DNA from: a virus | Lineage: Duplodnaviria; Caudoviricetes | DNA length: 64,000 nucleotides | Reading direction: 5' to 3' (one strand) | IMG/VR virus record: IMGVR_UViG_3300042010_000129 | Coordinates: 32,001-96,000 of that record | In this document: one piece after another, positions 2,822-49,271 of the stretch | Layout: every line of letters begins with the position of its first letter | How positions within the stretch are numbered: the stretch's first letter is position 1 | The notes under the pieces: generated by a model | What the model saw: only the letters and a program-made list of their open reading frames with translations | The model's database searches: none | Told to the model about the DNA's origin: nothing | Translations under genes and position numbers: made by a program

Positions 2822-3448
2822 ATGAGCAATTTGCTTGCACACGCTGACCGTGAATTCGCAATCACCATGCGGAACATGCGGGCCAATCCGGAAAACGACG
2901 AAAGCGATTTGACGATGCAGGAACATATGCATCAAAACGTGCGTGAAATTCTGGAAGTTGTTTCCCGTCAGGGGCACACCGGTTTCAGCATCAACTTTCT
3001 GTTCCAGATGGTTCAGAAAGTTGGAATGTTCGAACCGCTTTCTCCGATCCTTGGCACCGATGACGAATGGGTTGACGTTGCCAATATCAGCGGCGGGCAA
3101 CCGATGTTGCAGAACGCTCGCTGTGGTCACATTTTCCGTGATGGTGATTCGCAGGCTTACGATTCCACCGGTCGCGTTGTCGTTTGTGAAGACGGCCAGA
3201 CCGTGACGAATTATCAGAGCCGGGTTTACATCGAATTTCCGTATGTGCCGACTCGGGTTTACGCCCCGCATGGTGAAGACCTCGAACGTTTTATCCGCGC
3301 CGGTATTGTGGTTGGTGACGACTACAAAACTGCCGACGAAGTTCGCGAACTTTACAAGGTTCTGAAACGCACGGAAGAATTGCGCGAAGCTGGGCAAGCA
3401 TTTGTTGCAGAAGTAAAAGCAACCGGCCTACCCAACGTAGACGAATAA
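2822..3448 (+). CDS. Conserved phage hypothetical protein
   Basis: QGHTGFS...EPLSPILGTDDEW...QNARC pattern; SD upstream. Confidence 0.7.
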   Translation: MSNLLAHADREFAITMRNMRANPENDESDLTMQEHMHQNVREILEVVSRQGHTGFSINFLFQMVQKVGMFEPLSPILGTDDEWVDVANISGGQPMLQNARCGHIFRDGDSQAYDSTGRVVVCEDGQTVTNYQSRVYIEFPYVPTRVYAPHGEDLERFIRAGIVVGDDYKTADEVRELYKVLKRTEELREAGQAFVAEVKATGLPNVDE

Positions 3449-3450
3449 AA

Positions 3451-3459
3451 CTGTAAATA
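3451..3459 (+). promoter_or_regulatory. CTGTAAATA candidate phage promoter
   Basis: Intergenic, upstream of the SSB-RecA pair. Confidence 0.6.
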
Positions 3460-3516
3460 ATACTCAGGAGAGAAAAGCTTTCCGGGTATTCGACTTGAAT
3501 CTAGAGGAACAACCGC

Positions 3517-8280: not shown

Positions 8281-9531
8281 GTGGCTCATTCTAAATTTGA
8301 CGACCTGATCAAAGCGCTCAATGCCTTTGAATCCGGTATGGCAGAAAATACGCTCACGCGTAAAAGCGACATTATCAAACGGCTTGAAGAAATTTCGAAC
8401 CAAGCCACTATCCTGTTGAATCAGGGTAGCCTCCCAACGGGTAGCAAATCGACGCTTCTGAAGATCCGGAAACTGGTCAAAGAAACCGCCGAAGGTTTGC
8501 GCACCGACGTGTTCAGTTCCTTGGGGCCGATCCGTCGTATTTCTCGCGATCATTTGGGCACGCTTCACTCTGCATTGACTTTGCAGCTTGGCGGCGGTCT
8601 GACTGCTGAAGAGAAAACGCAAATCCGCGAAAGCTACGTCTCCGACGAAGATACGTCAGCCGAAGTCGAACGCCTCATTGAAGCATTCGATCCCGGTTCG
8701 TTGACCATCGGCGGCACGAAAGTTGATCTGCAATTGGCGCTGAATCATGTTCGCCAATTTCTGGATCAGAATTTCACGCTCTCGCAATTGCGCTCGATCC
8801 AGCCTTACAAATCCGGCGAATTGACTCCGGGCGGAAAGCCAGTCAAAAATCCTGACTCTGTTTGGAATGACCTCACGTACAGCGAAGTGCTGGCCGCGTC
8901 CGAGGAAACCCCAAAAGGCAAAACCCGTCTGGCCGCTCTCAAGCGCGAACTGGTCAAAAAACACGACGATGATTTGGCGACTCTTTCCGAGTCCTACAAA
9001 GAATTGTCGCGTCGTATGCCGCGAACCCTGAAACATCCCTTTGCCTCAATCTATTATCCCGTTGTTCCGATTTTCCAAGACATTGGCGTTTACAAAAATC
9101 CAACCCGTTTGGAAAACGCTGGCCTCAAGGTGACTCGCATTGGCGACCACTTTATCGTTCTGGAAAACCAACTGCTGCTGTGCATTGATCTTGATCGCAT
9201 CGGTATTAAAGACGGCATCCGTTTGACCAAAGACGGCCAGCGGATGAAAACTGTAAATAATAACAGTGCGTTGGAAACCGAAGTACACAAGATCGTTGGT
9301 CACATTAACGAAACGGCTCGCCACTCCGGCACTTCGTTTGCTGTTGCATCCGATACCATCGTGCGCAATCCGAACAACCCGCGAATCGCACTCGTCTGGT
9401 TGATTGAAGAAAAAGTTCGTAAGAAACTTGCCAACACGTTGACCAACACAAAAGTTCAGTGGGATATTCCGCGCCATCAAATGGAACCCACGCGTCTTAG
9501 CAAACGCCCTGCGCCAGCACGGACGAAGTGA
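8281..9531 (+). CDS. Hypothetical protein (416 aa)
   Basis: Long ORF, GTG start, phage-like codon usage; no recognised motif. Confidence 0.75.
   Translation: MAHSKFDDLIKALNAFESGMAENTLTRKSDIIKRLEEISNQATILLNQGSLPTGSKSTLLKIRKLVKETAEGLRTDVFSSLGPIRRISRDHLGTLHSALTLQLGGGLTAEEKTQIRESYVSDEDTSAEVERLIEAFDPGSLTIGGTKVDLQLALNHVRQFLDQNFTLSQLRSIQPYKSGELTPGGKPVKNPDSVWNDLTYSEVLAASEETPKGKTRLAALKRELVKKHDDDLATLSESYKELSRRMPRTLKHPFASIYYPVVPIFQDIGVYKNPTRLENAGLKVTRIGDHFIVLENQLLLCIDLDRIGIKDGIRLTKDGQRMKTVNNNSALETEVHKIVGHINETARHSGTSFAVASDTIVRNPNNPRIALVWLIEEKVRKKLANTLTNTKVQWDIPRHQMEPTRLSKRPAPARTK
9251..9259 (+). promoter_or_regulatory. CTGTAAATA candidate internal promoter
   Basis: AAAACTGTAAATAATA context identical to the 3451 copy; inside a CDS about 270 nt before the HNH gene. 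Confidence 0.4.
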
Positions 9532-18659: not shown

Positions 18660-19298
18660 ATGCCAATCCTAGCCGATGCACTGGTTGAACCAATCAAAGA
18701 AGACGAAGGCCGTTATTTGCAGATGATTGCAGACGGCGACCTTGAAGAGTCCGAGCCATTTGGTTTTATGGGAATCGGATACAAACTTTACGTGGGCACT
18801 GATCGTTATGTTCCGGGCCTGTCGAATTGTCGGTTGGTCGTCCTGTTCAAAGGCGAAGATTGTGTTTATTCCTGCTATTTCAAAATGGCGGAAAACCAAT
18901 ACTTCGGAAATCGCGTGGTGCAGGTTGAGGTTCGGCAGTCTCCAACGTTGCCGGGCCTTGCACGCTCCATGATGCGCAATTATTTCCTGCGTTTTTATGA
19001 TTCGATTCGCACGGATCTTTCAAGCACACCGCAAGGCCGCAATATGTGGCAGCAATTCTACACGGACTATCGGAAATCCGGTGACGTGTTTTTCTACCAA
19101 GGGTTGGTAAATATCGACCTGCGCAAATCGGACGGGTCGAATAATCAAGATGCATCCTGTCCAGAGGTGGTAACTCACTTGCGCGCCATGCGCAACGCCT
19201 GCACCGTACTGCGTGAAGGGATGTGGCACGACAATAAGCAGGGTAACGTTATTGTTATCTACGCATCCAACAAACCTCTATGGACAAAAGATCAATGA
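18660..19298 (+). CDS. Hypothetical protein, possible GNAT-like fold
   Basis: GLARSMM...IRTDLSSTPQGRNMW resembles the G+A..+Y...SD..QT..G..+W pattern. Confidence 0.55.
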   Translation: MPILADALVEPIKEDEGRYLQMIADGDLEESEPFGFMGIGYKLYVGTDRYVPGLSNCRLVVLFKGEDCVYSCYFKMAENQYFGNRVVQVEVRQSPTLPGLARSMMRNYFLRFYDSIRTDLSSTPQGRNMWQQFYTDYRKSGDVFFYQGLVNIDLRKSDGSNNQDASCPEVVTHLRAMRNACTVLREGMWHDNKQGNVIVIYASNKPLWTKDQ

Positions 19299-21235
19299 AA
19301 CTACGAAAAACGAACCGGGTTCCAATCGGTCAAGCGCCTGCTAATCGCGCCCCGCAAGCGATGGGTACTGCAAAGCAGTATTACCCGAAAACCAATCAGC
19401 AAAAGATCGACGATTATCTGGCAACGGCAGGCAGCGGCGGCAACGCGCAAATGTCTCAGATGCCTATCGAAATCGACATTGATCCGATGTTGAAAGATAT
19501 CGTGTTTTCCGAAGACCTTGAACAGAAAAAACTGGTCATGCGGATTTACACGGACATGTATTACAACGATTCCATCGGCGGTTCCATTGTCGATATCAAA
19601 TCGCAGCTGATGTTCTCCGACTTCACCATTTCCGGAATCATGGATCGCCGGGTGATGGATGATTTTATGGAAAACGTGGATCGTCTGGATATCCGCAACC
19701 TGATGCCCGACGTGGCAATCGACTACAACGTAAAAGGCGGTTTCATCGGATCGCTTTTGTACAACGAAAAATCGCAAGTGTTCTCGCGGATCATGCCGCA
19801 CGCTTACGAAAACACAAAGATCGACATGCTGCCTTTCCACGGCACCGATCCGCTGATCACTGTAGCGTTTCCCGAATACATCCGGGCGACCATGGCTTCC
19901 GATAGTCCGCGTGTAAAAGCACTGCGTGAATTCCTCGGCGCCGACGTGATGAAACAGCTTTCGAACGAAGCGCTGGAACTCGACCAGAAATCCACCGTTT
20001 ACGTTCCGCGCCGTTCTGGTTCCAGTTCAACCGGCACCAGTTATTATCGTCGAATCATGCCGTGGTATTTGCTGGAGAAAAACCTTTTCCGTGGCACGTT
20101 GGTACGAAGTGCAATGCGTCAAAAAGGTATTCTGCACGTAACGCTTGACGGCGCTGGCGAATGGGAACCGACACTGGCCGACATGCAGGCCGTGATGGAT
20201 ATGTTCATGAACGCCGATGCTGACCCGGTAGGCGCCGTGGTTGCAACGCGTGGCGGTATTTCCACTGAGGAAATTCGTGACCCACAAGGCGGTTGGACAA
20301 TCTTCGATAACAAAGACGCAATCGACTCGATTAAAATGAAAGCACTCGGAATTTCCGATGCATTCCTTTCGGGTGACGCGACTTATGCAAACGGCGATAC
20401 TTCGACCAGTTTCTTTATCGACGCAATTCGTACTGAACGTGATTGGCTGACCCGCAAGACTTTGTACAGCCGCATTTTCCCGATGATTTCCGCGTTGAAA
20501 GGCTACACGCTGAACCGCGACGGCAAATTGATTACTCGCGGTAACAGCCTCGACAAACTCGATCCAATGGGCAGCTTCGAACGACTCAACGACGGCACCC
20601 GTCTTTTGATTCCGACGATCCATTGGGAAAAGACTTTGCAGCCGGAAGGCGATCAGCAATACATGGATATGCTGCAAGCCATGTCGGATAAAGGCGTACC
20701 TGTTCCACTGCGCGTTATGGCGGCGGCTGGTGGCCTGAACCTTGACCGTTTGTTGGCCGGTCAGGATTCCGATTTGTTGGCGCAAGAATCGCTTTATCAA
20801 TACCAAAAGAAAATCAAAGATTTGAAAAAGAAATACGGTATTGATGACGCTGGCGATATGGGCGGCGGTGGCATGGGCGGTGGCGGTTTCGCTTCTACTG
20901 CATCCAGCTACGATCAGCAATTGATGCACATGGCCCGCACTAATCCCGGTTTGTTCGAAGCATTCCGCGCACAGGCACAATCCATTTATAACCAGAACCT
21001 CGACAATACGCATTCCGATGTATTGGCCCGCAACAATGGTCAAATCGTTGGTTTGGCGAATCGCCAATTCGGTGAAATGGGCGATGCTTACGGCTATTCG
21101 CATGACGGTAAAAAGAAACATTTGACCAATCAAAAGTTGGCGAAAGAACGTCAGAACGAAAAGATCGTTAAATTCCTTCGGGATCGTGATGCTCGTACCG
21201 GCGTCGGTGCAAAGCGTTCGCGCACTCGTTTGTAA
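19295..21235 (+). CDS. Probable portal protein
   Basis: About 645 aa, downstream of terminase, IYTDMYYNDSIGGSIVD pattern; inferred from synteny and size. Confidence 0.6.
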   Translation: MKLRKTNRVPIGQAPANRAPQAMGTAKQYYPKTNQQKIDDYLATAGSGGNAQMSQMPIEIDIDPMLKDIVFSEDLEQKKLVMRIYTDMYYNDSIGGSIVDIKSQLMFSDFTISGIMDRRVMDDFMENVDRLDIRNLMPDVAIDYNVKGGFIGSLLYNEKSQVFSRIMPHAYENTKIDMLPFHGTDPLITVAFPEYIRATMASDSPRVKALREFLGADVMKQLSNEALELDQKSTVYVPRRSGSSSTGTSYYRRIMPWYLLEKNLFRGTLVRSAMRQKGILHVTLDGAGEWEPTLADMQAVMDMFMNADADPVGAVVATRGGISTEEIRDPQGGWTIFDNKDAIDSIKMKALGISDAFLSGDATYANGDTSTSFFIDAIRTERDWLTRKTLYSRIFPMISALKGYTLNRDGKLITRGNSLDKLDPMGSFERLNDGTRLLIPTIHWEKTLQPEGDQQYMDMLQAMSDKGVPVPLRVMAAAGGLNLDRLLAGQDSDLLAQESLYQYQKKIKDLKKKYGIDDAGDMGGGGMGGGGFASTASSYDQQLMHMARTNPGLFEAFRAQAQSIYNQNLDNTHSDVLARNNGQIVGLANRQFGEMGDAYGYSHDGKKKHLTNQKLAKERQNEKIVKFLRDRDARTGVGAKRSRTRL

Positions 21236-21256
21236 TTTATTCATAGCAGCCAAAAA

Positions 21257-21265
21257 CTGTAAATA
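21257..21265 (+). promoter_or_regulatory. CTGTAAATA candidate promoter driving the ncRNA
   Basis: Ends 5 nt before the 5' arm of the long hairpin. Confidence 0.6.
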
Positions 21266-21269
21266 ATGT

Positions 21270-21480
21270 ACAAGGAGTTGAGAAACGTTCGACACTAGCC
21301 AGACCAAAGGGTTGGGGATCGGGTAACGACGCTACGGGCTTAGCTGGCCATTACATGATAGTCGTTGCCCACTTGACCGATAATGATATGTGGAACGTTC
21401 TCTCAATTTCTCCTTTGTTCAGGCAAAGGTGGTACAACCCAACCGCGCCCTGTGAGCAATTGCACGGCGCGGTTTTTTCG
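21270..21480 (+). ncRNA. Candidate 6S-like noncoding RNA
   Basis: 21270-21295 pairs with 21390-21418; unpaired bubble 21296-21309 / 21379-21389; inner stem 21321-21330 / 21361-21370; bounded by promoter motif and terminator. Confidence 0.55.
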
Positions 21481-21483
21481 TTT
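21441..21483 (+). terminator. Rho-independent terminator
   Basis: AACCGCGCC/GGCGCGGTT stem running into a T tract. Confidence 0.75.
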
Positions 21484-21496
21484 CTGGAGCCGAAAT

Positions 21497-21796
21497 ATGT
21501 GGGACGAATTAACATACGAAGAACAACTGAATTTTCTGATTGAATTGTGCGGAACATCTAGCGGATATCCGACGATTGATCACGAACTGGTTTTCCTGTG
21601 CGAAGCGGTATTGAATACCAAACAGCGCCGGGAATACGTGGATCATATGAGCGGCACAATTGCCGATCACACCTATCGCCGGATTGATCCTGAACACCCG
21701 GACGCCGCGACTCAGTATTACTTCAACATGATGCACGCTGCTGTTGAATTGCGTGCGAAAATGATTTGGTGCGCTGCGACAGGAAATCAACCGTAA
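21497..21796 (+). CDS. Hypothetical protein
   Basis: GGAG SD before ATG 21497 (MWDELTY); stop coupled to the gp5-like gene. Confidence 0.7.
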   Translation: MWDELTYEEQLNFLIELCGTSSGYPTIDHELVFLCEAVLNTKQRREYVDHMSGTIADHTYRRIDPEHPDAATQYYFNMMHAAVELRAKMIWCAATGNQP

Positions 21797-38282: not shown

Positions 38283-38307
38283 AAACAGTAATTTTATAGT
38301 ATGTTAC

Positions 38308-38343
38308 GCCGGGAAGGTTTAGGCTGACCCGGCTTTCTTTTTT
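38308..38343 (+). terminator. Terminator-like hairpin
   Basis: GCCGGG/CCCGGC stem with long loop, then TTTCTTTTTT. Confidence 0.55.
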
Positions 38344-38357
38344 ATGGATCAAAAAAC

Positions 38358-49178: not shown

Positions 49179-49235
49179 AACAACTCCTTTAAAAAGGCAT
49201 TAATTGCCTGTTGTGCGTAATTTACTTATATACAA

Positions 49236-49244
49236 TATTTACAG
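49236..49244 (-). promoter_or_regulatory. CTGTAAATA candidate promoter for the thyA block
   Basis: TATTTACAG on + strand, 58 nt upstream of the thyA start. Confidence 0.6.
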
Positions 49245-49271
49245 TATTCCATGCACTGGGGGGAACCACAC

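Follow-up and report, generated by a model that had tools for sequence, protein, structure and literature searches.

A conserved rod-shaped RNA structure follows the portal gene in Lu11-like jumbo phages of Pseudomonas

A folded RNA is encoded between the portal gene and the next gene

Comparison of related phages revealed a structured RNA in the gap after the portal gene of a Lu11-like jumbo phage. Compensatory base changes show that the fold is under selection and that it is a real and conserved structure of the plus-strand RNA. On this comparative evidence it is a folded RNA of a new family, to which we assign no function. The reading we favor, at a probability of about 0.45, is that of a trans-acting, stand-alone small RNA gene nested at the junction of the portal and tail genes. 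To our knowledge, a function is known for only a few of the structured non-coding RNAs of phages, and the literature searched describes no such RNA from the Pseudomonas giant phages of the Lu11/PaBG group. The comparative support for the rod-shaped RNA after the portal is unusually clean. Since natural deletion variants and cultured members (Lu11 on P. putida, HRDY3) are at hand, its function is directly testable.

The analyzed stretch of 64,000 nt (the window) belongs to a Pseudomonas jumbo phage of the Lu11-like kind; the portal protein encoded at 19280-21235 shares 86% identity with its counterpart in HRDY3, 76% with that in Lu11 and 52% with that in PaBG. A gap of 261 nt (21236-21496) separates the portal ORF from the next ORF, which starts with an ATG at 21497. 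The order from 5' to 3' is GTAATTTA, AAAACTGTAAATAA, the rod, the small hairpin P5, the terminator, GGAG and the ATG. The features are as follows.

21232..21239, plus strand: GTAATTTA motif, overlapping the portal stop codon; candidate for a second promoter class
21253..21266, plus strand: phage promoter motif AAAACTGTAAATAA, with the core CTGTAAATA at 21257-21265
21273..21294, plus strand: outer helix P1, 5' strand, pairing with 21389-21411; covariation
21295..21309, plus strand: central bubble, 5' strand CTAGCCAGACCAAAG, containing the conserved GCCA[AG][AC]AC block
21310..21378, plus strand: inner arm, made up of P2, a GAUC bulge, P3 and the apical hairpin P4
21310-16 with 21372-78, plus strand: helix P2 (GGTTGGG/CTTGACC)
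21321-30 with 21361-70, plus strand: helix P3 (GGGTAACGAC/GTCGTTGCCC)
21337-49, plus strand: apical hairpin P4
21379..21389, plus strand: central bubble, 3' strand GATAATGATAT, with invariant A21380, A21382, T21384 and A21386
21389..21411, plus strand: outer helix P1, 3' strand; covariation
21412..21429, plus strand: small hairpin P5 (CCTTTGT-TCAG-GCAAAGG), conserved in sequence and absent together with the rod in rod-less relatives
21441..21478, plus strand: intrinsic terminator with a 9-bp G+C stem, an inner 5-bp stem, a GCAA loop and T6
21484..21499, plus strand: GGAG ribosome-binding site and ATG (21497) of the next gene (99 aa)

The rod comprises 139 nt (21273-21411) with an asymmetric central bubble. 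Including P5 and the terminator, the predicted primary transcript has a length of ~207 nt. A first-pass annotation of this DNA had described two helices, a bubble, an apical hairpin, a promoter motif and a terminator, and all of them are present where it had placed them. The layout also supports its proposal of a discrete RNA unit, a rod with a central bubble that is predicted to be bounded by the promoter motif and the terminator. The terminator has a single copy within the window. Its T-run lies 19 nt from the ATG of the next gene, which leaves no space for a promoter in between. A putative additional helix, P0 (21267-71 with 21432-36), had one-sided support only, in two subgroups, and is not claimed here.

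Two small ORFs in the gap (21355-21543 on the plus strand and 21351-21557 on the minus strand) were dismissed because relatives carry 1- and 2-nt indels and substitutions track the helices. No tRNA or tmRNA was found in the window.

The fold is kept by compensatory changes

Folding of the plus strand gave an energy of -83.8 kcal/mol (z = -4.6), and none of 200 shuffled sequences was as stable. For the minus strand, z was -2.9. The first set used for covariation consisted of the window and two close relatives with portals 95-96% identical to its own (95-100% among the three phages), aligned with MAFFT. In these three sequences, 11 of the 42 proposed pairs were changed on both sides and still paired, and 97.6% of the cells were paired compared with 34-50% when the partners were slid by 1-3 columns. 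A larger alignment of seven sequences was fitted to a covariance model, so that its numbers lean towards the structure; here compensatory changes were found in 30 of 41 pairs, and 90.6% of the cells were paired compared with 29-44% after sliding. The three-sequence MAFFT result is free of such bias. The check for covariation in related phages that the first-pass annotation had proposed thus came out in favor of the fold, with pairs kept through compensatory changes in both sets.

Changes on both sides were seen in 13 of the 17 pairs of P1. The sequence of this helix is wholly different among four subgroups, and pairing is always kept. P3 and P2 had compensatory changes in 9 of 10 and 4 of 7 pairs, respectively. 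RNAalifold recovered the same helices unprompted from the seven-sequence alignment. When MAFFT and RNAalifold were applied to nine raw sequences, the rod was missed due to misaligned helices, which was fixed by the model-based alignment. Paired columns contained 30 G-U cells compared with 10 A-C cells. This excess of G-U over A-C cells indicates that the selected molecule is the plus-strand RNA and not a DNA cruciform.

Conserved bubble strands and terminator

The 5' strand of the bubble follows the pattern GUCG..(C/U)(A/U)GCCA[AG][AC]AC..AA, and its GCCA[AG][AC]AC block was kept in alignments A1 and A5, in contrast to the variable helices on either side. On the 3' strand the pattern is n-A-U-A-n-U-G-A, with the four invariant positions listed above being identical in 9 sequences. 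A more distant relative, L020 (portal 67% identical), has the rod fold as well and carries AAUACUAAA on the 3' strand of its internal loop, with the same motif (AATACTAAA).

A 36-nt terminator element is 100% identical in the window, L001, L012, L016 and L018, while the flanking genes are 67-73% identical at the DNA level. The terminator stem is without covariation, and the element is kept at 92-94% in rod-less relatives. As judged from these identities, the conservation of the terminator far exceeds the needs of termination, and we offer no explanation for it.

Presence and loss of the rod in related phages

Related portals were collected from 20 IMG/VR loci and 3 phage records. The rod was found at the same place in 9 distinct sequences. 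A covariance model built from the window subgroup (three sequences) found the RNAs of HRDY3 and L012 at full length with an E-value of about 1e-6, that of L018 at 0.05 and that of Lu11 at about 1. A second model found exactly one copy each in HRDY3, Lu11 and a 308-kb record (G002), and none in PaBG. L013 and L016 were recovered neither by model R1 nor by model R2, and R2 with filters off also missed L020 and PaBG. L013, L016 and L020 were joined to the family by position and shared motifs only. A blastn search of the gap against phage records matched the terminator end only, in HRDY3 and Lu11; the rod is too diverged for blastn. A pattern scan of metagenomes returned 3 loci, all of which were already in the set.

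Several relatives lack the rod. L008-L011, whose portals are 87-88% identical, have neither the rod nor the small hairpin, and their CTGTAAATA is separated from the same terminator by 12 nt. L019 and L022 lack the entire gap. The neighboring genes are kept in all of these loci. We infer from this pattern that the rod is dispensable and probably serves an accessory function that was lost in some relatives. Yoloswag, NCTB and several relatives with 48-49% portal identity have no gap or the terminator only. The presence of a nearby KTSC-domain gene was considered as a possible link, which was rejected: the gene is present in all relatives and does not co-vary with the rod.

Other structured RNAs occupy the same position in more distant phages. 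PaBG and four PaBG-like contigs have, in this order, TAATTT, a Y-shaped RNA, a small hairpin, the terminator, CTGTAAA and the ribosome-binding site of the next gene. L072 (portal 49%) has TAATTT, a multi-branched RNA, the terminator and then a GTGTAAATA promoter motif.

L003 3359-3455 (PaBG), and after the portal in L065, L067, L068 and L070: Y-shaped RNA, a three-way junction of ~100 nt with invariant loops UUGCUGCGAGCUU and UUACUCCUUUC and a compensating closing helix
L072, about 3285-3470: multi-branched RNA of ~160 nt with the flanking motifs given above

The next gene of the PaBG-like phages and of L072 has its own promoter motif after the terminator (CTGTAAA and GTGTAAATA, respectively), and the RNA unit is thus self-contained there. 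Judged from the compared gaps, the Lu11/PaBG supergroup as a whole is characterized by a structured RNA after the portal, and the rod with a bubble is specific to the Lu11-like branch.

Two details of the L072 RNA may be added. It is closed by a perfect helix of 14 bp, and near its 3' side it carries AAUAGUG and UAUACUAGG, resembling the bubble motif of the Lu11-like RNAs.

Promoter motifs and transcription layout

The motif CTGTAAATA has 5 copies in the window, with 0.2 expected. The 4 copies other than the one at the rod all share the same wider context. Three copies are located directly upstream of genes (a Tad3-like gene, a 418-aa ORF and, on the minus strand, thymidylate synthase), and the copy at 9251 falls within a listed ORF. 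The homologous 16 nt in the Lu11 record bear the annotation 'putative middle/late promoter'. A second motif, [GC]TAATTT[AT] (STAATTTW), has 6 copies in the window (8217, 21232, 23413, 38288, 49217 and 63969). All of them are on the plus strand, intergenic and just upstream of plus-strand genes, which makes the motif a candidate for a second promoter class. TAATTT follows the portal stop in every Lu11-like, PaBG-like and L072 relative with a post-portal RNA. With both GTAATTTA and CTGTAAATA located 5' of it, the rod is preceded by two promoter-like motifs.

The gene at 1592-2605 encodes a protein of 337 aa with a sigma-70 region 2 domain, in line with the published observation that phages of this group carry their own sigma factors, in addition to relying on the host polymerase (PMC7412058). 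The stop codon of this gene sits within a CTGTAAATA motif. The next gene (2822-3448) matches the Thoeris inhibitor family Tad3 (E = 5e-28).

The Lu11-like phages have no promoter between the terminator and the next gene. Transcription must thus pass the terminator to reach that gene, in which case the rod belongs to a leader as well. The succession of promoter motif, terminator-like hairpin with a U-run and ribosome-binding site was observed again at 38283-38357 and, on the minus strand, at 49179-49250. The same layout, with the promoter before and not after the terminator, follows the portal in the rod-less L008 and L009. It is reminiscent of the promoter/stem-loop cassettes of T4-type phages. 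Since the layout recurs and remains in rod-less relatives, the 'terminator' may not define the end of the RNA. For transcription in this phage group, two more features thus call for an explanation, namely the order of promoter before terminator and the invariant terminator hairpin.

A tentative reading as a stand-alone small RNA

According to the favored reading, transcription would start at the CTGTAAATA motif, possibly also at GTAATTTA 25 nt upstream, and would end at the intrinsic terminator. The resulting RNA would have about 205-245 nt. Its fold into the 139-nt rod, the small hairpin and the terminator hairpin is shown by the comparison, with helices that drift fast and stay paired and with both bubble strands keeping their sequence. 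The RNA would act in trans, and the conserved bubble would be the docking site for a partner, most likely a protein. The RNA would then work as a decoy or scaffold.

We counted in favor of a stand-alone RNA the plus-strand structure, the covariation, the homology, the single copy, the conserved bubble strands, the promoter and terminator, the self-contained counterparts in PaBG-like phages and L072, and the dispensability. Counted against it were the terminator of the Lu11-like phages, which must be read through and makes the rod part of a leader as well, and the recurrence of the promoter-hairpin-RBS layout at 38288 and 49244(-). When the window was searched for possible targets that could pair with the bubble strands or the apex, only chance 9-10-mers were obtained.

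Possible cis-acting roles

The main rival is a cis-acting role, which we regard as somewhat unlikely. The structure would be an intercistronic element, namely a signal for the processing or stability of the portal message at its 3' end (a long helix of RNase III type or an exonuclease barrier) combined with a tail-gene leader that depends on read-through of the terminator. Such an element would explain how these phages separate the expression of portal and tail genes. Across the Lu11/PaBG supergroup a structure lies right after the portal stop while its interior varies (rod, Y-shape, multi-branched), and a long, nearly perfect closing helix followed by the terminator is always present. Between P5 and the ATG the identity is 86-100%, compared with 67-73% in coding DNA, which is what a regulatory leader would show. 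The lack of a promoter behind the terminator of the Lu11-like phages and the recurring layout of promoter, hairpin and RBS in the window point in the same direction. However, a stability or RNase III signal needs no sequence-conserved unpaired motifs on both bubble strands. Moreover, the PaBG-like downstream gene has its own promoter after the terminator, rod-less relatives retain the same neighbors, and no antiterminator pairing was seen by eye.

The RNase III hairpins of T7-type phages are intergenic and irregular, and consist of two helical segments around an asymmetric internal loop within a polycistronic unit. The rod shares this intergenic shape of two helices and an asymmetric loop. With P1 of ~21 bp and P2 plus P3 of 17 bp, it has the ~10 bp or more on each side of the internal loop that an RNase III site takes, a correspondence in shape only. 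In contrast to the T7-type hairpins, the rod is 2-3 times longer, has sequence-conserved loop strands and is preceded by its own promoter motif.

A similar layout is known from the lambda '6S RNA' (the pR'-tR' transcript) and StxS. These are short RNAs that run from a phage promoter to a terminator directly before the structural genes, whose expression needs read-through; the lambda RNA is a leader transcript unrelated to 6S RNA (10.1101/2024.10.31.621285). The Lu11-like unit likewise has a promoter motif, a predicted short RNA and a terminator directly upstream of structural genes, with no other promoter. The likeness is in layout alone: there is no sequence relation, and in the PaBG-like phages the next gene has its own promoter after the terminator.

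Comparison with 6S RNA

The first-pass annotation had viewed the rod as a 6S-like decoy for the host sigma-70 holoenzyme and had named sequence segments shared with E. coli 6S. The Rfam scan gave no family match in the window at gathering thresholds (46.4 bits for RF00013). At E<=10, RF00013 did not match the 411-nt region, where the only matches were chance miRNA and lncRNA matches on the terminator. At the same threshold, RF00013 had no match in G001, G002, HRDY3, Lu11 and PaBG, while the control bacterial genomes matched. The search that had been suggested as a check thus came back empty for the gap and for five related genomes or records, and membership of the 6S family is not supported. 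The proposed sequence likeness was at chance level. Local alignment to E. coli 6S scored 15 compared with a shuffle mean of 15.7 (307 of 500 shuffles scored as high), and the phage RNA model gave 1.5 bits on E. coli ssrS. By these profile and sequence searches, the rod is not a member of the 6S family.

The 6S-type shape is present and supported by covariation: the closing helix has ~21 bp, the bubble strands measure 15 and 11 nt, and the inner arm consists of 17 bp and an apex. Like 6S RNA (SsrS; RF00013), the phage RNA is a rod with a closing helix, a large central bubble and an apical arm, and it carries a candidate -10-like pattern on the 3' bubble strand. This working resemblance is real but unspecific. 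In contrast to 6S RNA, the phage RNA has no sequence or profile similarity to the family, is phage-encoded, would end at its own terminator and not by processing, and was lost in close relatives. With 139 nt the rod alone is shorter than 6S RNA (~180-200 nt); the predicted transcript has ~207 nt, with ends as predicted from sequence.

6S RNA binds the housekeeping holoenzyme and serves as the template of product RNAs, the template start being on the 5' strand of the bubble. In 6S RNA, the '-10-like' region lies on the 3' strand of the bubble, next to the inner helix (PMC8876501). The GATAAT that had been singled out as -10-like in the phage rod is as such not conserved (variants are CATACT, AAAACT, AATAGT and others). 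What is conserved is a -10-like pattern that borders the inner helix and in which A, A, U and A are invariant. On the 3' strand the distance between an invariant A and an invariant U is 4 nt, which is the spacing of -11A and -7T, and both lie at the end of the bubble that adjoins the inner helix. In E. coli 6S, single changes in the -10-like bases barely affect binding (PMC8876501), so that a conserved motif at this place is not a hallmark of 6S.

An open-promoter mimic that is similar to 6S RNA but unrelated to it would be a special case of the trans-acting reading, and a decoy for RNA polymerase of this kind appears improbable. Made from a phage promoter, it would bind through its conserved bubble in the active-site cleft of a holoenzyme, containing either host sigma-70 or the phage sigma protein encoded at 1592-2605, and would shift transcription between phases. 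Its 3' strand (A-U-A-n-U-G-A) might take the place of a -10 element or of the ACTGTAAA promoter of the phage itself, and the RNA might time a host/middle/late switch, a detail that we hold to be equally improbable. The geometry of the rod is right for this role, and the 3' bubble strand opens with the conserved n-A-U-A-n-U, in which the A-U spacing and the placement are as in 6S RNA (PMC8876501). The dependence of the phage group on host polymerase and own sigma factors (PMC7412058) would also fit. In addition, part of the motif (ACUG..AAA, or ACTG..AAA as DNA) resembles the phage's own ACTGTAAA / CTGTAAATA promoter, which we take as a lead only. Against this mimicry speak the missing matches to RF00013 or any other Rfam family, the missing likeness to E. 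coli 6S and the small effect of single -10-like changes there. A rod with a bubble is also a common shape, and a sequestered holoenzyme would take away core polymerase that the phage itself needs. A decoy function is made less likely by the loss of the rod in close relatives and by the Y-shaped RNA that PaBG-like phages carry at the same position. In the literature searched, no phage 6S analogue has been described, and the rod would be the first one if it binds RNA polymerase. A negative feedback loop would arise if the RNA titrated the phage-sigma holoenzyme by which it is made.

Unlikely roles in base pairing or packaging

Still less probable is a small RNA that acts by base pairing. Its C/U-rich, anti-Shine-Dalgarno-like CUCCUUU (21408-21416) or its 5' bubble strand would target the ribosome-binding sites of host or phage messages. 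CUCCUUU is conserved in the Lu11-like RNAs, a similar ACUCCUUUC is found in the hairpin loop of the PaBG-like RNAs, and a terminator with a U tail would fit a small RNA of the Hfq type. However, in the RNA of the window CUCCUUU is paired (base of P1 and P5), complementarity in the window does not rise above chance, and conserved letters in an internal loop shut by stable helices would be unusual for a seed. In the window, CUCCUUU pairs with AAGGAG at the 5' end of the RNA.

The phi29 packaging RNA (pRNA, RF00044) is likewise a structured phage RNA of similar size, and the rod is encoded next to the portal gene. A packaging RNA of this type was rejected: neither RF00044 nor any other Rfam family matched, and a packaging RNA, being essential, would be retained in close relatives, some of which lack the rod (L008-L011) or the whole gap (L019, L022).

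Occurrence in metagenomes

The stretch occurs in metagenomes from food, plants, rhizosphere and soil. Public runs labeled as RNA consist of contigs only, which are of doubtful RNA origin and whose boundaries follow strain variation and not RNA ends. One contig of 12.9 kb from a peat metatranscriptome (run X26), an 83%-identical relative, spans the portal, the rod region and the next gene, and neither shows nor excludes a discrete RNA. In this contig the interior of the rod (window 21322-21414, 88 letters) is replaced while the flanks are kept, which adds one more variant of the RNA.
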